DNA of 64,000 bases from Candidatus Kaiserbacteria bacterium. Lineage in GTDB: Bacteria > Patescibacteriota > Minisyncoccia > Phycocordibacterales > Phycocordibacteraceae. Shown piece after piece: positions 3,452 to 57,786 of the stretch (the stretch's first letter is position 1; each line of letters opens with the position of its first letter). Both the position numbers and the translations under genes were made by a program. The notes beneath the pieces are model-generated. The model did no database searches, was not told the DNA's origin, and saw nothing but the letters and a program-made list of their open reading frames with translations. Location of the stretch: positions 55,779-119,778 of the forward strand of contig CAWEXP010000006.1 in assembly GCA_963813065.1 (NCBI GenBank), written 5' to 3'.

Positions 3452-5014
3452 TTACGCCTTCGGCAAGGTGAACCAGAAGGTACTGCCGAGGTCGGTGCCG
3501 GGGGAGTCGAAGCCAACCGTGCCACCCTGGCGCTCGGCGAGATTCTTCAAGAGCGAGAGGCCGAGGCCGGTGCCTTCGGTGTCGGCAATGCGCGCCGAGT
3601 CGGCGCGGAAGAAGCCGGAGAAAATGCTTTTACGATTCTCGGGCGCGATACCGATGCCGGTATCGGTAACTGAAAAACGGACGTTGCCGCGATCATCGGG
3701 CGCGATATATACCGCAATCGAGCCTATCGTTGTGTAGTGAACGGCATTCTCGACGAGCACATCAATCATCGAGGCAACGGCGCGCTCTGCGGCAAGCGCA
3801 CGCACGGCCTTGGAGAAGTCGGTCGTGACCACGATCTTTTTTCGTTCGGTCTCGGTTTTGAAACGCTCCAGCGCGGCTTGGGTAAGCGGCACGAGATCGA
3901 CCGGTGCCTTCTGGAGCGCCGTCGCTTCGCCCGAGTGCGAGACTTCAATCAGCGCGTTCGTCAGCTCGACGAGACGGTTCGCCGCTTCGTCGATGTGCGC
4001 GAGGCCGGTACGTGTCGCGTCATCGACATTCGGGTGCTCAAGCATCTCGGCGATACTCCAGCGGATTTCGGTCAGCGGCGTGCGGAGCTTGTGCGTCGCG
4101 ACCGTGATGAACTCGTACTTGAGCCGCTCGCTTTCATTCAACTGCCAGAGCACTAAGCGACCGACGGCGAGTGCGATCAATGCCACAATGAGTGGAAGCA
4201 TCCAGAATTGGAGTTCGGGAATCACTCGCGCCAAGACCGAGTTCAAAAGAAGTAGGACCACGAGGAAGGCCGTGACCGCGGCAATCGCCAGCGCGTAGTA
4301 GAAGGTGCGTCGCACCGCAATGCGGATGTCGAGGAGATCGTTCGCGAAGATACCGTACGCAATCGGGAGCATGCAGAAGCCGGTCAACAGGCCCAGAATT
4401 GGATCAATGGGCACATCGAAGACGGGCAGGAAATTGATCGAGCCGAAGAGATAGGCAATCACGAACATGAGGATGAAATATTCGAACCGTTTGCGCTCGA
4501 CCCCGGTCGAGGATCGGTAGACCAGGGTGAGATTCACTATCGGCACCAGCGGGAAGCCCAGGAAATAGGCAAGCATGACGCCATAGAGCCAGCCACCCTC
4601 GAGATAATAGAAGAAGTATGCCTTGGGGAGCACGGTGGGCAAGAACCATGAGGGCTCAAGGCGCGCGGCAAGCAGGATGGCGATGCCGACGCCATAGCTC
4701 AAGATAATATACCAGCGCAATACCTTGTCTTTACCCGCGACGCGGAGGACGAAGTGCACCACGAACATCACAATAAAAACGTCGACGATATTGAGCGACC
4801 ACCAGAAGTAGGCGGGTGCGTAGGAGGTCTGCAGAGCGGCAATGATAAAGAAGACCTCGTACAAGAACACGCCGATGATCATGAAAAAGAAGAGCTGGTT
4901 CTCCAGCTTGCGCCATTTCTGTGTCGCGACGAAGGCGGAGACGCCGAGCAGAAGCGCTCCCGAGAGGGCGTGCCCCGCGATGGCAACCAAGAGCTCTGGC
5001 GGAAAGGTGTTCAT
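3452..5014 (-). CDS. Membrane sensor histidine kinase
   Basis: Multi-TM N-terminal domain; HisKA H-box ATHKLRTPLTEIRWSIAEM; HATPase_c G-boxes (DTGIGI, GTGLGLSL). Confidence 0.8.
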   Translation of the reverse strand: MNTFPPELLVAIAGHALSGALLLGVSAFVATQKWRKLENQLFFFMIIGVFLYEVFFIIAALQTSYAPAYFWWSLNIVDVFIVMFVVHFVLRVAGKDKVLRWYIILSYGVGIAILLAARLEPSWFLPTVLPKAYFFYYLEGGWLYGVMLAYFLGFPLVPIVNLTLVYRSSTGVERKRFEYFILMFVIAYLFGSINFLPVFDVPIDPILGLLTGFCMLPIAYGIFANDLLDIRIAVRRTFYYALAIAAVTAFLVVLLLLNSVLARVIPELQFWMLPLIVALIALAVGRLVLWQLNESERLKYEFITVATHKLRTPLTEIRWSIAEMLEHPNVDDATRTGLAHIDEAANRLVELTNALIEVSHSGEATALQKAPVDLVPLTQAALERFKTETERKKIVVTTDFSKAVRALAAERAVASMIDVLVENAVHYTTIGSIAVYIAPDDRGNVRFSVTDTGIGIAPENRKSIFSGFFRADSARIADTEGTGLGLSLLKNLAERQGGTVGFDSPGTDLGSTFWFTLPKA

Positions 5015-7910: not shown

Positions 7911-9116
7911 ATGTTTTTCAAGAAGCGAACATATCTCGATTATGCCGCGGGGGCTAAAGGGAATCCGAGCTCAGCGCATGAGGAAGGCCGCAGGTCCCGA
8001 GAGCAACTCGAGGGAGCCCGCAAAGACATTGCAACTCTGACGGAGGTGAAACCAGACGACATCATTTTCACCAGCGGCGCGACGGAGGCGAATGCCATCG
8101 CCATCCTTGGGATAGGTAACTGTGAAGGTCAGACCTTCACAAAAAAACATGCGCTGTATTTGCCGAGTGCCCACGCGTCGATAGTCGAAAATATGAAATT
8201 GCTCGAGGAACGGGGAGTCGTGGTCGAGCCGTTGCCGATTAAAAATGGACAAGTTGATTGCCCAGCACTCGAAAAAATGATTCGACCGGAAACGGTGCTT
8301 GTTGCGATGGACGCGGTCTGTGGTGAGACGGGGACAATCTGGAATACGCGTGAGGTTGCAAATGTTCTGCGCGTGGCGGAGAAACGTTTTCTAGCTCCCT
8401 CGGGCCTCATCGGAATGAGTCAGCCAGTCGCGTCGAAAAGCTTTTTCCCCTCACGGGCTCTTCTGCACGTGGACGCGAGTCAGGCGCCGATGACCGAAAA
8501 GATTTCGCGCGCACATTTCTCGGCCGACACTTTGGTTTTTGATTCGGTGAAAGTCGGTGGGCCGCGTGGCGTCGGGTGCCTCATCGCGCACCGTACCATT
8601 CCCATCGCTCCCTTATATAGAGGCGGCGGCCAGGAGCGCGGCCTGCGACCAGGCACCGAGAATCCCGAGGCGGCGAGAGATTTTGCGCGGGCATTACGGA
8701 CTGCGAATGAAAACCATGATGCATTTCGTGCACACTCAACTTCGCTTAGGGCGCTTCTGCTCAAGGATTTAGCAAGGTTAAACCTTAAGAATAATGCATC
8801 AAGGTTTAACCTTGCTATAAATGCCGGCAAGGAAGTCGCTCCACACATTTTGAATATCTCTCTGCCCGGCAAGGATACCGATTATCTCGTCGCGCTCCTC
8901 GATGAGGCCGGGTTCGCCGTCTCGACGCGGAGCGCGTGCGAGACCGATTCAGAAGAGGGTTCGCGCGCGGTCTTTGCATTGACCAATGATCTCGAACGCG
9001 CGAAATCAACCCTCCGCATCTCGTGGGGACCTGCCACCTCCGACCGCGATCTTGCGCGTTTTGCCGCCGAACTCGTGCGTCAGGTCGCCTTCATTGACAG
9101 CACGGCTTCGCGGTAG
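7911..9116 (+). CDS. Class V aminotransferase / cysteine desulfurase family protein
   Basis: NifS/IscS-like layout (TSGATEANAIAI..., HVDASQA..., SACETD near the C-terminus). Confidence 0.7.
   Translation: MFFKKRTYLDYAAGAKGNPSSAHEEGRRSREQLEGARKDIATLTEVKPDDIIFTSGATEANAIAILGIGNCEGQTFTKKHALYLPSAHASIVENMKLLEERGVVVEPLPIKNGQVDCPALEKMIRPETVLVAMDAVCGETGTIWNTREVANVLRVAEKRFLAPSGLIGMSQPVASKSFFPSRALLHVDASQAPMTEKISRAHFSADTLVFDSVKVGGPRGVGCLIAHRTIPIAPLYRGGGQERGLRPGTENPEAARDFARALRTANENHDAFRAHSTSLRALLLKDLARLNLKNNASRFNLAINAGKEVAPHILNISLPGKDTDYLVALLDEAGFAVSTRSACETDSEEGSRAVFALTNDLERAKSTLRISWGPATSDRDLARFAAELVRQVAFIDSTASR
8770..8817. repeat. REP-like palindromic element inside the cysteine desulfurase CDS (17-bp inverted arms TAGCAAGGTTAAACCTT, 14-nt spacer)
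   Basis: Perfect 17-bp inverted repeat. Core AGGTT(T)AAACCT is shared with the REPs flanking the RAYT at 56974 and 57668. Reads through in frame (LARLNLKNNASRFNLAI). Confidence 0.6.
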
Positions 9117-15682: not shown

Positions 15683-16654
15683 TCAACTCTGTTTTGTTCG
15701 CTTGCCTCGCACTCGTTTGCCAGCTTGCGGAGCCACGGCTTTTTGGCGACGGGCGTACTGCCACAGTTTAGCCGAAAGGGTAGGGAGAAGTGATTCTTTT
15801 GTGCGTTCATCACGCAAAAATTCGCCGACGATTTTGTACTCGAGACCGAGTTCGTTGAGGCGTAGTGCCTGCCCGGCTCGCTCGCGAGACGGGTCGCCAA
15901 CTTCTGCGCGCACGCGGGCGACCTCTTCGATAAGTCCGCGCTCCAGAGCGCTCGCGAGTCGCGCATCAATGTGTGCGCGCAATTCTTCGCGTGGTGGATC
16001 GATCATGATCCACTCGATTTGGTATTTGGGAAGGTCCTGTTTGTTCAGGTCAGACCTAAACAGTTGCTGTTTAGGTCTGACCTGAACAGGTCGCAGAGGG
16101 ACAGAGCCGCGAGCGGCAATAATCTCGAGCGCGCGGACGAGTCGGCGACGATTCTGCGGATCGAGCTCGGCCGCGCGGCGCGGGTCGGCTGTTTGTACTC
16201 TCGCAAACAGTTCTTCGGTCGAGAGCGTTCGAGCTCGGCGCGCAGTTCTGGATTCATGGCCACACTGCCGGGCAAACCTTTCAGCAATGCATCAAAATAA
16301 AAATGCGTCCCGCCGGCGAGGATCGGCAATTTCCCACGCGCGTTATCTCTGCGATCAGTCGCTCCGGCGTCGTGGACAAAATCTCCTGCCGAATAACTTT
16401 CGATTGCGTTGCGAATATCGATAAGGTGGTGAGATATGCCACGCATTTCCTCGCTCGTGTATTTTCTCCGTGCCAATGTCGAGGCCGCGGTAGACTTGGC
16501 GTGAGTCGACCGAAATCGACCTCGCCCCCCGCGCGAGCGCTTCTTGCACGGCCCGCGCGGATTTCCCCGAGGCGGTCGGCCCGGCGATGATAAGGATTTG
16601 CTCTGCCATCAGCCGCGATGGTATCCATAAATGTATGAAAGAAATGAAAAGCAA
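15683..16654 (-). CDS. miaA: tRNA dimethylallyltransferase MiaA, split into three ORFs by two apparent 1-nt frameshifts and carrying an in-frame palindromic insert
   Basis: P-loop GPTASGKS; motifs GISHHLIDI and ILAGGTHFY; C-terminal RALEIIAARG and WQYARRQ. Frame breaks at ~16448 (AAAA run) and ~16205. Confidence 0.65.
16037..16093. repeat. Palindromic element inserted in frame in miaA (CAGGTCAGACCTAAACAG-ttg-CTGTTTAGGTCTGACCTG plus imperfect flanks)
   Basis: 18-bp perfect inverted arms with 3-nt loop, extended by imperfect pairing. Translates without a stop in the miaA frame as RPVQVRPKQQLFRSDLNKQ. Confidence 0.7.
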
Positions 16655-34234: not shown

Positions 34235-34494
34235 GTGGGTAGAGGCTTGCGCCTCTCATACGAGTTTCCCCGTATGGCCGGTAAAGACGACCCCACATGA
34301 TGGGTTTCCGCGTCTTTACCGGACTTCTCCAGCCATGCCCAGCCCGGAGGCTGAGTTTAGGCCATATCGCACCCTTGTATCGTACTCGGTCTGGAGCTTA
34401 TGTGAAGGCGGAACGTGCTTTCTACAAAAAACCAGAAACAGAAAAAACCATAGATTCTATGGCTTCTTCTGAGGTTATATTAACTGGCCTTCGG

Positions 34495-37031: not shown

Positions 37032-37331
37032 TCAATACTCCGGCTCCTGATGCTTCTTGGGGTCAACTTCCCACCAGAATTTCTTCGAGAAGTGTTTGGC
37101 GCGACTGCAGACGCTCTTCAAATAATATAAGTCGTTGGTGGGGATGCCTTCGAGGATGAGGCCAAGACGCGACATGGTGAGCGGCACGAGCCCGTCCTTC
37201 TTGCGCGAATAATTAAGATGTTTCTGGAAGAATTGCAGGAGCTCGCCGCGCTCCGTCTTCCGCTGACGCCCGCCCGGCGCTGACGCCATCTTCTTCTCGA
37301 TGTCGGGCAAAATCTCCTTGATGGACTTCAT
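37032..37331 (-). CDS. Hypothetical protein
   Basis: 99-aa basic ORF overlapping the murA start. Confidence 0.35.
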   Translation of the reverse strand: MKSIKEILPDIEKKMASAPGGRQRKTERGELLQFFQKHLNYSRKKDGLVPLTMSRLGLILEGIPTNDLYYLKSVCSRAKHFSKKFWWEVDPKKHQEPEY

Positions 37332-38632
37332 GACGTTTCAATTTCAGCACCGAGAGACTTGAGGCGCGTGACGATATCCTCATAGCCGCGGGAGATCGAG
37401 TAGACGTTGCGGAGGGTTGAGCGACCGGCGCTGCCGAGCATGGCGACGAGGATGATGGTCGCGGGGCGCAGTGCGGGCGGGCAGACGACCTCGGCCGCCT
37501 TGAGCCGCACGGGGCCGGGGATCGAGATGCGATGCGGATCGTGGAGCACGGTCTGCGCGCCGAGTCGATCGAGCTCGGTGTAATAGATCGCGCGCTTCTC
37601 GTAGACCCAGTCGTGGATAAGGGTTGTGCCCTTGGCCACGAGCGCAATGGCGGCGAAGAAGGGGAGATTGTCGATGTTGAGACCCGGATAGGGGCGGGCA
37701 TGAATTTTTTCGGGGAAGGCAGTCAGGCTCGACGGCTTCAGGTGCAGGTCGATGATCTTGGTAATGCCATTCTCTGAGACGCGTGGATTCTTGAGCGAGT
37801 ATTTCAATCCCATTTTCTCGAGAATAAAAAGTTCGGTCTCGAGGAACTCGATGGGCGCACTGCGAATGACGAGCGCTGACTTCGTCACGATGGCCGCAGA
37901 GATGAAGAACATCGCGTCGGTCGGATCTTCGGCGACGGTGTATGAAATATCTTTTTTAATCTCTCGAATGCCGCGCACCGTGAGTGTCGTCGAGCCGGTG
38001 CCCTCAATCTCGACGCCGAGCGCTTGCAAGAATCCGCAGACTTCCTGCACCTGATAATTCGCCGAGGCGTACTTGATGATGCTCGTGCCGGGAATCTTCG
38101 CGGCGGCGAAGAGGGCATTAATGGTCGCGGTGTCGCTCGATTCGTAGAGAGTCACTTCGGCCGGGTGCAGAGTCGTATGCGTAATACGGTAGCGGTCACG
38201 GAGTGCGCTGATGGCAATGCCGAACTTCTCGAGCGCGTAGAGATGCGGCCGCGCCGAACGGAGGCCCAAGGTACAACCGCCCGATTGCGGCAACTCGAAT
38301 TTTTTGAAACGGTGCACCAAGGGGCCGATGAACATCAAAATACTGCGCGTCTTGGTCGCGGCGACCTTATCAATTTTATCGAGGTTTAACCTCGATGAGG
38401 GGGCAACGATGAGGCTCGAACCGTTCCATTCCACCGAGACACCAATCGACCGCAGGACTTCGACGAGTCGGTGCACCTCCTCGATCTTCGGCACGCGCTC
38501 GAGGGTCGTGACACCATCGTTCAGTAGCGAAGCGGCGAGGAGTGCGACCGCGCCGTTCTTCGAGCGCGAGGTGATGACTTCGCCTCTCAGTTTCTTGCCG
38601 CCCTCAATCACGAAATTCATGCCGTCGGCCAT
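37328..38632 (-). CDS. murA: UDP-N-acetylglucosamine 1-carboxyvinyltransferase
   Basis: EPSP-synthase fold pattern: KLRGEVITSRSKNGAVALLAASLL..., active-site region RSARPHLYALEKFG (catalytic Cys replaced). Confidence 0.8.
   Translation of the reverse strand: MADGMNFVIEGGKKLRGEVITSRSKNGAVALLAASLLNDGVTTLERVPKIEEVHRLVEVLRSIGVSVEWNGSSLIVAPSSRLNLDKIDKVAATKTRSILMFIGPLVHRFKKFELPQSGGCTLGLRSARPHLYALEKFGIAISALRDRYRITHTTLHPAEVTLYESSDTATINALFAAAKIPGTSIIKYASANYQVQEVCGFLQALGVEIEGTGSTTLTVRGIREIKKDISYTVAEDPTDAMFFISAAIVTKSALVIRSAPIEFLETELFILEKMGLKYSLKNPRVSENGITKIIDLHLKPSSLTAFPEKIHARPYPGLNIDNLPFFAAIALVAKGTTLIHDWVYEKRAIYYTELDRLGAQTVLHDPHRISIPGPVRLKAAEVVCPPALRPATIILVAMLGSAGRSTLRNVYSISRGYEDIVTRLKSLGAEIETS
38378..38396. 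repeat. REP palindrome ATCGAGGTTTAACCTCGAT within the murA coding sequence
   Basis: 19-bp perfect palindrome identical to the core of the RAYT-flanking REPs; encodes SSRLNLDKI in frame. Confidence 0.6.
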
Positions 38633-42289: not shown

Positions 42290-43030
42290 ATGCACCACGC
42301 TTTTTTCATCGAGGCGGAAGCGGAAGCGGGAACGGCACTCGCGCTCGAGAGTATCGAGCGCGAGTTGGGGATGAAGGCGGCGGGGAATCCAGACGTCGTC
42401 GTTTTGAAATATGGATTGCTCTCGGTTGAGGATACGCGACGAATTATTGAAATAGCTTCAACGAAAGCATTTGGGAAGGCTAAAACTTCCTCTGAAGGAC
42501 GTTCGCCCGACGCTTCGGGAGAAGCGTCTAGGGCGATTGTTATCGCGGCGAGTCGCGCGTATCACGAGGCGCAGAACGCACTCCTGAAAATATTCGAGGA
42601 GCCCGCGCCCGGCACACACCTATTTCTCATTCTCCCCTCAGCGGGGATGCTCTTGCCGACGCTGAAATCTCGAATGCAAATTGTGGACACGCCGTGTCCT
42701 AAATCAGATTTAGGACACGCCGTGTCCAACTTGCCGGAAGCGGCGCAAAAGTTCCTCGCGGCGACGAGCGAGAAGCGCACGGCAATTGCGAAGAAGCTCG
42801 CAACGGGCGATGACGAAGACGATCGACGTGCCAATCGTGACGAGGCGCTCGCGATTGTGAATGGCATTGAGCTCGCGGCATACCGCGCATCGAAGAAACA
42901 GCCGGACCCAGCACTCTTCGCGCTCCTCTCCGACCTCGCAATCCTGCGCACGTATCTCCACGAACGCTCGGCGCCGGTCCGTATGATTCTCGAGCACGTC
43001 GCGCTCGTGATTCCAAAAAGCTTGAAATGA
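42290..43030 (+). CDS. holB: DNA polymerase III delta' subunit
   Basis: AAA+ clamp-loader pattern ALLKIFEEPAPGTHLFLI...LPTLKSRMQ. Confidence 0.65.
   Translation: MHHAFFIEAEAEAGTALALESIERELGMKAAGNPDVVVLKYGLLSVEDTRRIIEIASTKAFGKAKTSSEGRSPDASGEASRAIVIAASRAYHEAQNALLKIFEEPAPGTHLFLILPSAGMLLPTLKSRMQIVDTPCPKSDLGHAVSNLPEAAQKFLAATSEKRTAIAKKLATGDDEDDRRANRDEALAIVNGIELAAYRASKKQPDPALFALLSDLAILRTYLHERSAPVRMILEHVALVIPKSLK
42685..42727. repeat. 43-bp perfect palindrome inside holB (GGACACGCCGTGTCC-TAAATCAGATTTA-GGACACGCCGTGTCC)
   Basis: Two copies of a 15-bp self-palindrome flank a 13-bp palindromic spacer; read in frame as DTPCPKSDLGHAVSN. Shares the CCTAAA(T)CAG core with the miaA element. Confidence 0.65.
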
Positions 43031-56961: not shown

Positions 56962-56973
56962 ATATAAAACAGT

Positions 56974-56994
56974 TATCGAGGTTTAACCTCGATA
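56974..56994. repeat. REP palindrome TATCGAGGTTTAACCTCGATA (RAYT 3' flank)
   Basis: 21-bp perfect palindrome overlapping the RAYT stop. Confidence 0.7.
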
Positions 56995-57657
56995 TTCTTG
57001 ATAGTATTCATGCGCGTCAGTAATCATTTCCTCAAGAGAGGGGAGTTCCTCGTAGAGTTCAAAAACCGTCATGCCAAGGAGATGTTTTTCTAGTCGTTGC
57101 AACTTCAGAAAGTCTGGAAGACTCGAGTATCGGTACCGGATGAGTTCGTTTTTAATCTGCGATACGTTTCCGTCGCCATTTTTCCATGCAGAATCAAAGA
57201 GTTTTGCAGGATTCAGATGGACATAGGCAACCAACCGCTTAAGATACAGATCATCGTCGACAATCTTCGATTTAAACGTTCCCGCAAACAATGCGCCCGT
57301 TCGTTCATATTTAGTATTAAAGTACATCGTGTAGCCCGTACAAAGTTTTTGCATGAAGCGCGCAATGCCTCCCTTGTCTATCTCTTTAAGTACCAGATGA
57401 AAGTGGTTTGGCATCAAACAATATGCACCGATTTCTACAATGGCGTTTCCACGGTCAAAACTCGAATCAAGAATTACATCCGCCAATCTTTTGTTTTTAA
57501 GATTAGAGGTCTGTACTGGTTTTTCGCCACCGCTCGTAAAGAGGGCGAGCAGAAAACGTTCATAATCTGCAGAATCTTGATACACCAGCCGTTTATCTAC
57601 CCCACGGTTGTAGCAGTGATACCACTCATCAATTCCAAATGCCGGTCGCGTAGGCAT
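56983..57657 (-). CDS. REP-associated tyrosine transposase (IS200/IS605-like HUH Y1 transposase)
   Basis: HUH motif HFHLVL, conserved Tyr region (AYVHLNPAK), ~220 aa; flanked on both sides by the same REP palindrome. Confidence 0.7.
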   Translation of the reverse strand: MPTRPAFGIDEWYHCYNRGVDKRLVYQDSADYERFLLALFTSGGEKPVQTSNLKNKRLADVILDSSFDRGNAIVEIGAYCLMPNHFHLVLKEIDKGGIARFMQKLCTGYTMYFNTKYERTGALFAGTFKSKIVDDDLYLKRLVAYVHLNPAKLFDSAWKNGDGNVSQIKNELIRYRYSSLPDFLKLQRLEKHLLGMTVFELYEELPSLEEMITDAHEYYQEYRG

Positions 57658-57667
57658 GACCGCATCT

Positions 57668-57688
57668 TATCGAGGTTAAACCTCGATA
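57668..57688. repeat. REP palindrome TATCGAGGTTAAACCTCGATA (RAYT 5' flank)
   Basis: 21-bp palindrome, variant of the 56974 copy. Confidence 0.7.
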
Positions 57689-57786
57689 TTTAGGAGAATT
57701 ATACGAGGTGTGGATAACAGTGTTTGGGCTGGTGGGGCAAAGTGGGATATACTGCGTAGCAGTGGGAAATCGTCCCGCTCCCGTCT

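Follow-up and report, generated by a model that had tools for sequence, protein, structure and literature searches.

Repetitive extragenic palindromic (REP) sequences and the domesticated transposases that accompany them, the REP-associated tyrosine transposases (RAYTs), are known mainly from Proteobacteria, as extragenic elements. In E. coli, the action of the RAYT TnpA-REP on a hairpin in single-stranded DNA is an established mechanism, and the concept of REP doublets forming hairpins (REPINs) is said to be that of Bertels and Rainey. REPs with GTAG and CGTC tags have stems of 6–13 bp and loops mostly of 2–3 nt, and form head-to-head and tail-to-tail dimers and REPtrons (Di Nocera et al. 2013, PMC3733652). 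The same survey records, as a minority class, REP dimers that lie inside genes for replication, repair and tRNA synthetases, and the degenerate tetranucleotide forms listed there do not include TTAG (PMC3733652). Here, we analyzed a 64,000-nucleotide stretch (the window) of Candidatus Kaiserbacteria bacterium, a member of the candidate phyla radiation (CPR; GCA_963813065.1, contig CAWEXP010000006.1, positions 55,779 to 119,778), in which a 45-bp palindromic element is read as part of a holB-like gene for the DNA polymerase III delta' subunit. This element is probably a minimal translated REP doublet of REPIN-like build, composed of two 15-nt GGAC-N7-GTCC hairpins set tail-to-tail around a 13-nt palindromic spacer.

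The host gene and the parts of the element were found to be arranged as follows.

42290 to 43030, plus strand: host gene, DNA polymerase III delta' (holB-like), 246 aa, with PF13177 and 1A5T matches

42684 to 42728, no strand assigned: whole palindromic element, 45 bp or 15 codons, translated as (V)DTPCPKSDLGHAVS(N)

42685 to 42699, no strand assigned: left REP-like hairpin P, GGACACG-C-CGTGTCC, with a 7-bp stem and a 1-nt centre

42700 to 42712, no strand assigned: palindromic spacer S, TAAATC-A-GATTTA, homologous to NACATC-W-GATGTN in related elements

42713 to 42727, no strand assigned: right REP-like hairpin P', GGACACG-C-CGTGTCC, read in register as GGA CAC GCC GTG TCC = GHAVS

The 43-bp core (42685–42727) reads GGACACGCCGTGTCC TAAATCAGATTTA GGACACGCCGTGTCC and was widened by one T...A pair to 42684–42728, giving arms of 22 nt, complementary at 21 of 22 positions, on either side of a single central A. 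All three sub-palindromes are of odd length, with a central base of their own. As direct repeats the two 15-mers match exactly, and as inverted repeats they match nearly so; the sole mismatch of the long palindrome arises because both have C at the centre, and these two bases cannot pair. Thus the palindrome, described as perfect in a sequence-only reading of the window, is real and far above chance but carries one C/C mismatch. The longest arm with at most one mismatch was 22 nt, compared with 10–15 nt across 80 shuffles of the window, and the analytic expectation of such a palindrome is ~1.5e-6 per window. Folded as a single strand, the element adopts a minimum free energy structure of one long hairpin (−22 kcal/mol as DNA and −34.6 as RNA, z about −7), as is found for inverted doublets in the REP/REPIN-RAYT system, and each GGACACG-C-CGTGTCC unit is by itself a short stem-loop (7-bp stem, 1-nt centre; 6-bp stems and 3-nt loops in its relatives). 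The spacer bears TTAG/CTAA 'tags' that point inward, one beside each hairpin.

The identity of the host gene was supported by matches of the open reading frame (ORF) at 42290..43030 to PF13177 (DNA polymerase III delta'; E = 5e-11) and to E. coli delta' (1A5T; E = 1.8e-8), and by its homologues, which carry the name 'DNA polymerase III delta prime subunit'. The codons of this ORF bear out the earlier claim that the palindrome is read in frame, with GTG GAC ACG CCG TGT CCT AAA TCA GAT TTA GGA CAC GCC GTG TCC AAC encoding V DTPCPKSDLGHAVS N and the palindrome peptide being DTPCPKSDLGHAVSN. Hairpin P is read out of register, as (G)GAC ACG CCG TGT CC = DTPC(P), and the centre of the spacer, TCA GAT, yields Ser-Asp. 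The element is placed after LLPTLKSRMQIV, the SRC motif. The profile match to E. coli delta' stops at LLATLRSRCRL161, which we take to be the end of AAA+ domain I in the delta' structure; the insert would therefore lie in the linker to domain II. When 29 orthologues were aligned, the segment from LLPTLRSRVQxL to IPExAEEFxKA was found to range from ~8 to ~25 residues, and the 15 insert residues of the window fall wholly inside it. In the AlphaFold2 model of the holB product (mean predicted local distance difference test score, pLDDT, 82.6), residues 135–145 have pLDDT < 50 and are without secondary structure, between a strand at 129–130 and a helix at 150–157. The palindrome is thus predicted to encode a disordered loop just past the SRC motif. 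For the host, the element is most likely neutral cargo, carried in a disordered surface loop, and not a functional motif.

Other palindromic and inserted segments were noted in the same gene. A second window-specific insert (42466–42530, residues ~62–80, KAKTSSEGRSPDASGEASR) also has low pLDDT and holds the hairpin GACGCTTC-GGGA-GAAGCGTC (42509–42528); its peptide EGRSPDAS recurs in inserts of MiaA orthologues from other genomes (KPAEGRSPDASHTED...), a recurrence suggestive of one more mobile element read in frame. Palindromes occur in conserved parts of the gene too: ACTCGCGCTCGAGAGTATCGAGCGCGAGT (window 42337–42365) encodes ALALESIEREL and CGCGGCGAGTTTCTGAACTCGCCGCG encodes the conserved ARRVSELAA in four orthologues (L002 2707, L019 10143, L027 5089 and L034 2261; L numbers denote collected loci). 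These two are coding palindromes of the kind described in Nematomorpha mitochondria.

To place the insert among its orthologues, 80 holB loci were taken from GTDB species representatives. In orthologues that are 50–60% identical, the same site was found to be empty, to hold single hairpins of 25–29 bp (e.g., ATGTA-GGACGTAGTACGTCC-TACAT; L026, L013, L022, L019, L045 and L033) or to hold 43–53-bp doublets of the same design and different sequence, among them GGACGTACGACGTCC TACATCTGATGTA GGACGTCGTACGTCC in L006, GGACATCGGAAGTCC TACATCAGATGTA GGACTTCCGATGTCC in L014 and GGGTTTCGGAAACCC ATCATCAGATGAT GGGTTTCCGAAACCC in L028; the same-site palindromes of L001, L002 and L008 measure 47–53 bp. Further orthologues have decayed hairpins (GFAKT, GLTKP, GHRKP and others) or an empty site. 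This comparison agrees with the proposal that the insert is not native delta' sequence. Hairpin P' occupies the position of the orthologous hairpin common to most relatives, as seen by covariation in 25 orthologous segments, and the right-hand hairpin at this site has the reading GGN NNN NNN NNN NCC without exception. Across the 25 orthologous segments of 27 nt, 84.7% of cells were paired, compared with 67.7 +/- 1.7% after shuffling (0/500) and 34–45% with slid partners, and both-sided (compensatory) changes were detected in 8 of 11 pairs.

Hosts that are 80–85% identical carry unrelated inserts (L004/L008, L011/L055 and L027/L030), which points to turnover and not to slow descent. Since the inserts are patchy and differ, the site is a landing pad with turnover, as opposed to a single relic in slow evolution; descent of one ancient insert by vertical inheritance alone is ruled out by the differences between these close hosts and by identical hairpins at different sites. 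A second holB hot spot, at about residue 205–215 in the numbering of the window protein, has the same hairpin types in other genomes. As a separate observation, a recurrent insert at the first site, VPRLRSGRQEIAEAAEQFLAA (GRQEIAEAxEQFLAA type), was detected in L004, L012, L029 and L057, scattered over the holB tree. It is encoded by a 40-bp palindrome, CGGCAAGAAATTGC-N12-GCAATTTCTTGCCG, in which the native conserved helix (EEFLKA -> EQFLAA) forms the right arm, and this suggests an inverted duplication of host sequence.

The element was then compared with metagenome sequences by scanning for GGACN7GTCC-N3ATCWGATN3-GGACN7GTCC, a pattern with 20 free positions. The scan yielded 95 stretches comprising 84 elements in 80 loci and, as anticipated in the sequence-only reading, placed the holB palindrome in a dispersed family, the same architecture being present 84 times in ~19 genes. 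All 84 doublets lie inside ORFs, and 83 of them share the phase xD-x-x-x-P-[TS]-S-D-[VDE]-G-x-x-x-S, the exception being in RpiB; the resulting peptides are rich in Gly, Ser, Thr, Pro and Asp. About 22 recurrent sites in ~19 housekeeping genes are used, including (i) holB, with 13 of the 84; (ii) fixed positions in transketolase (tkt), with ~15, GluRS, S-adenosylmethionine methyltransferase, DnaE, TsaD, TGT (two sites) and UvrB (two sites); and (iii) fixed positions likewise in AlaRS, ArgRS, PheT, Mur ligase, TatD, class-V aminotransferase, a VirD4-like protein, fmt and RpiB. One hairpin variant can occur at many sites and several variants on one contig; the window variant, GGACACGNCGTGTCC, was found again in the transketolase of L156, L159 and L165, and 2–3 doublets each are present on L098, L125, L130 and Ga0172379_10000110. 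Outside holB, GGAC-N7-GTCC hairpins number ~3 per Mb in the 1.3 Mb sampled, and the family is therefore low-copy. The same 1.3 Mb (loci and window) contain 225 perfect palindromes whose arms measure 10 nt or more, many of them inside long ORFs, compared with 4–7 after shuffling, and 30 GGAC-N7-GTCC sequences with at least two of three free stem pairs, compared with ~4 expected. The doublet pattern had 0 matches in 2.9 million viral contigs, and a search of the window for CCTAAAYCAG, the core from which the existence of a family had originally been argued, recovered the holB copy and no other. Another in-frame palindrome family, CCTGCCTGC(C)GGCAGGCAGG, translated as LPAGRQG or LPAQAG, was observed in several genes and genomes (L014 1449, L021 3620/5080/5769 and the MiaA orthologue P0246).

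The evidence that ties these hairpins to a transposase came from tblastn searches of the doublet-bearing metagenome loci, which uncovered a second clade of RAYT (RAYT-2; PF01797) that is 30–40% identical to the RAYT of the window. In five related loci (L095, L108, L115, L135 and L151), RAYT-2 ORFs are directly flanked by ATGTN-GGAC-N7-GTCC-NACAT hairpins. L108 has CCATGTAGGACGTCGTACGTCCTACATGG and ATGTAGGACGTCGTACGTCCTACAT, L095 has ATGTGGGACATCGGAAGTCCTACATG at each flank and L115 has GTTAGGACATCGGATGTCCTAAC, the last with GTTAG-GAC...GTC-CTAAC feet and thus with TTAG as in the window element. In L095 and L108, the variant that flanks RAYT-2 is the doublet variant of the neighbouring tkt. Because hairpins of the holB type flank RAYT-2, GGAC-N7-GTCC can be regarded as a RAYT-associated REP and the holB element as its tail-to-tail doublet. 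By analogy with described systems, RAYT-2 would recognise the hairpin; the RAYT linkage of the holB element in the window genome is likewise drawn by analogy with these related genomes. In addition, the RAYT-2 proteins of L108 (~3650–4333) and L151 contain their own REP in frame (...SRTTNVGRTTSYIRERIVDIHGW...), with a decayed copy (GHRKS) at the same position in L095, and a third RAYT-like group, 40% identical to the window RAYT, was observed in L159 (1511–2284), L176 and L156, flanked by a further hairpin type (CAACTTGGCGGTCGAACCGCCAAGTTG and AATCGCTTGGCGGTTCGACCGCCAAGCGATT).

The window itself contains a RAYT with a different REP.

56983 to 57657, minus strand: RAYT-like Y1 transposase (RAYT-1), PF01797, REPtron 56973–57690

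This gene is flanked by 24-nt REPs, TTATCGAGGTT[T/A]AACCTCGATATT (REP TATCGAGGTTWAACCTCGATA, core AGGTTWAACCT), and the TAA with which it stops falls at the centre of the 3' REP. Homologues of RAYT-1 are common in Paceibacteria (6511 matches at E <= 1e-10), and in four other genomes they have the same flanking core, N4-RAGGTTWAACCTY-N4; when the window RAYT was used as a tblastn query, none was found in the 80 holB loci. Its REPs also lie within coding sequence, in frame in a murA-like ORF (37328..38632, minus; 38376–38399, ...APSSRLNLDKID..., read ...SSRLNLD...) and as an in-frame inverted pair in a class-V aminotransferase (7911..9116; 8770–8817, TAGCAAGGTTAAACCTT...AAGGTTTAACCTTGCTA, read as ARLNLKNNASRFNLA with ARLNL...SRFNL). 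Downstream of RAYT-1 in L186 is a 39-bp nested palindrome, TTGAGGTTTAACCTCAA-GAATC-TTGAGGTTAAACCTCAA, with the design of the holB element. The proposal of a second in-frame family, differing from the AGGTTWAACCT REPs of the window RAYT, was thus upheld, while the further proposal that it is of a kind apart from RAYT REPs was not: GGAC-N7-GTCC with ATGTN/NACAT feet flanks RAYT-2 in five loci, and RAYT-1 REPs make the same nested doublets. The aminotransferase ORF also bears an GGTCAGACC hairpin at 8121–8141 (TGTGAAGGTCAGACCTTCACA, read CEGQTFT), and at the place of the P-S-P doublet of the L140 aminotransferase, the window protein carries another insert, of 29 residues (~8375–8460).

The covariation at the orthologous position, together with the very stable fold and the fixed phase at recurrent positions in ~19 housekeeping genes, could be taken to reflect a structure selected by the host in holB and the other genes, such as a site for RNase III or an RNA-binding protein, a translational pause at a domain boundary or a DNA cruciform. 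We consider this improbable, as presence is patchy, with many orthologous sites decayed or empty, close relatives differ in content and the hairpins flank RAYT genes. The pairing statistics bear on the same point. Only 29 of 1239 pairs were non-Watson-Crick, and a single one of these 29 was G.T on the coding strand (G.U in mRNA); this near-absence of G.U indicates that the constraint on symmetry is DNA-like and not RNA-like. As G.U pairs are not enriched, an RNA-level reading was ruled out as the primary explanation, and the holB element had no Rfam match at gathering thresholds.

Symmetry was also informative about how the doublets arise. Of 51 distinct doublets, 47 have a P and P' that can pair at every one of the seven free positions, three loop bases included, while P taken alone is imperfect in 70 of 102 cases, with one or more mismatches in its three free stem pairs. 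Mismatches cluster at the base of the P|S junction (18/59), and the right unit, ATGTN-P'-NACAT, is mostly a perfect singlet with a variable left flank. The symmetry of the loop bases implies that inverted duplication or arm-to-arm conversion is needed besides RAYT transposition. Template switching during replication (quasipalindrome correction or fold-back synthesis) could in principle account for the elements without a transposase, with ectopic strand switching or recombination spreading the copies and the adjacency to RAYT genes being incidental. The near-perfect long-range symmetry, extending to the loop bases, is what this process would leave, as is the nested and periodic build, in which doublets resemble a perfect right singlet with an inverted add-on; the GRQEIAEAxEQFLAA insert, whose right arm is a native helix, suggests inverted duplication at the same site, and the same idea has been put forward for the coding palindromes of Nematomorpha (PMC6649704). 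Nonetheless, template switching as the sole cause is unlikely, since nearly identical hairpins of 25–27 nt occur at different sites in different genomes, and hairpins flank RAYT-2 on both sides in five loci, twice in the variant of a nearby doublet, for which chance adjacency is improbable. It probably complements RAYT activity as a means of maintenance and is not an alternative to it. A miniature inverted-repeat transposable element was ruled out, as the flanks extend the palindrome (ATGTN...NACAT) and there are neither direct repeats nor a target-site duplication.

Several further points weigh against a RAYT-borne REP doublet. Besides the loop-base complementarity and the frequent imperfection of P, for which RAYT transposition alone is insufficient, (i) a comparison of 72 distinct flank sets revealed neither a target-site duplication nor a clear target motif; (ii) the foot beside the stem is TTAG and not GTAG and is base-paired within the palindrome, the feet of related copies being GTAG, GTGG or GTTG; (iii) the 64-kb window has no RAYT-2 gene and, with up to two mismatches allowed, no further copy of the 15-mer GGACACGCCGTGTCC, which is confined to this single locus; (iv) classical REPs are mostly extragenic, whereas every one of the 84 doublets is intragenic; and (v) the strict phase and the use of the same sites across genomes are without a mechanistic explanation.

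An assembly or amplification artefact, in the form of a fold-back chimera, can be all but dismissed. Chimeric reads can yield perfect inverted repeats and miaA in the same window has two apparent frameshifts, but the insert is in frame, at 45 bp, and homologous elements occupy the same site in dozens of independent metagenome-assembled genomes and metagenome assemblies made with different assemblers. Two compensating frameshifts around a well-conserved middle segment divide the miaA gene (15683–16654, minus) into three ORFs. A +1 shift falls within an A-run near 16478, and ~200–250 nt downstream of it is a −1 shift; these may be either sequencing error at homopolymers or real disruption.

The palindrome within miaA had been put forward as a relative of the holB element. 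It spans 47 bp (16042–16088), in frame with the C-terminal part of miaA (...GSVPL RPVQVRPKQQLFRSDLNKQ DLPKYQIEW...), and its segment varies from 0 to ~30 residues among MiaA orthologues, several of which carry RAYT-1 REP peptides (TRFNLV/TRLNLV) there. MiaA was not found by tblastn in the collected loci, and the comparison was made at the protein level. The two elements do have in common a sub-hairpin that ends in CC and is followed by TAAA(T)CAG, a TCWGA-type centre and the general design; however, the likeness is short and weak, and the miaA sub-hairpins are GGTCWGACC, a different dispersed type that occurs also at 8121–8141 and in def of other genomes (GQTL...QGLTL). The kinship is weak and is one of design, the two elements being of different families.

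Two features elsewhere in the window were recorded: a LOOT RNA (RF03000; Rfam, 84 bits) at 34241–34363 on the minus strand, which adjoins a tRNA gene, and four diverged tandem paralogues at 49–2153 with common repeat blocks of 93 and 77 nt, whose counterparts in L184 are annotated T4SS_pilin (PF18895).

Overall, the holB element as a translated REP doublet could be understood by a scheme in which a RAYT acts on the hairpin in single-stranded DNA, cleaves and ligates it, and thereby seeds, replaces or homogenises copies, and/or in which hairpin-templated strand switching in replication does so. A singlet already resident at a site may become a doublet by inverted duplication or template switching, which would also keep the arms identical. 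Selection would purge out-of-frame or disruptive states, and lethality of imprecise deletion could explain persistence in essential genes; such selection may be the reason why one phase prevails, why the loops are permissive and why doublets are missing from intergenic DNA, where they could simply be lost. A wider idea, which we put forward tentatively and regard as rather unlikely, is that Paceibacteria (CPR) harbour a hitherto undescribed guild of 'obligately coding' REPINs, that is, RAYT-linked doublets restricted to essential genes, to one phase and to ~22 fixed loops, made symmetric by hairpin-templated conversion and addiction-like in that deletion is lethal, and that the host could have turned them into a shared cis-element, as a DNA cruciform or mRNA hairpin, coupling replication, repair and translation genes.

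These findings describe a CPR lineage with almost no intergenic space in which two RAYT clades, each with its own hairpin family, are associated with translated loops in essential genes. With its small size (43 bp), fixed sites and many variants, the system offers a compact natural setting for studying the spread and homogenisation of REPs by RAYTs, the tolerance of perfect palindromes by genes critical to replication and the reason why certain protein loops serve as universal landing pads. Many indels that are specific to single lineages in the core proteins of CPR bacteria are explained by these inserts, which can also break de Bruijn assemblies and deserve recognition in annotation and phylogenomics.

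Of the systems described, REP/REPIN-RAYT is the closest. Common to both are a short hairpin (6–7-bp stem, 1–3-nt loop), whose foot here may be a GTAG-like one, inverted doublets capable of folding into a single larger hairpin, the presence of the same hairpins beside a Y1/HUH RAYT gene (here in related genomes), genome- or lineage-specific stem variants with compensatory changes, and in-frame placement in replication, repair and tRNA-synthetase genes, with different REPs at the same orthologous site. The present doublets differ in being very compact (13-nt spacer, 43–53 bp in total), low in copy number and confined to ORFs, in one phase and at ~22 recurrent sites. Their foot is paired on both sides and has no polarity, whereas the canonical REP tag is unpaired and at one end; the host is a CPR bacterium, the RAYT is of a distinct clade and the cognate RAYT was not seen in the window. 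REPs of the CGTC type were ruled out, as their 8–9-bp stems, A/T first pairs, 4–5-nt loops and CCA tail do not fit.

Two other kinds of coding palindrome can be compared as functional analogues. The Rickettsia palindromic elements (RPEs; Ogata et al. 2000, cited in PMC3733652) are likewise selfish palindromes that sit in frame in many housekeeping genes of a host with a reduced genome. They give rise to surface segments of the proteins and have orthologous sites common between species. RPE-1 is ~100–150 bp long, repeat identity is lost over time and no transposase is assigned, whereas the present elements are 25–53 bp, nearly perfect and RAYT-linked, have no sequence similarity to RPEs and are not placed among them. 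The mitochondrial coding palindromes of Nematomorpha (PMC6649704) are also perfect inverted repeats in ORFs with all-or-nothing perfection, a pattern that suggests active arm-to-arm conversion, and persistence owing to intolerance of in-gene deletion. They differ in that both arms encode conserved protein segments, in reaching 284 bp and in forming no dispersed family (PMC6649704); the holB insert, in contrast, is absent in many orthologues, encodes a low-confidence loop and is a member of a repeat family. A literature search on CPR palindromes, the peptide PTSDVG and in-frame palindromic insertions returned no description of such elements. The RAYT-linked in-frame REP doublet family is new for CPR bacteria and unusual in its confinement to coding loops.

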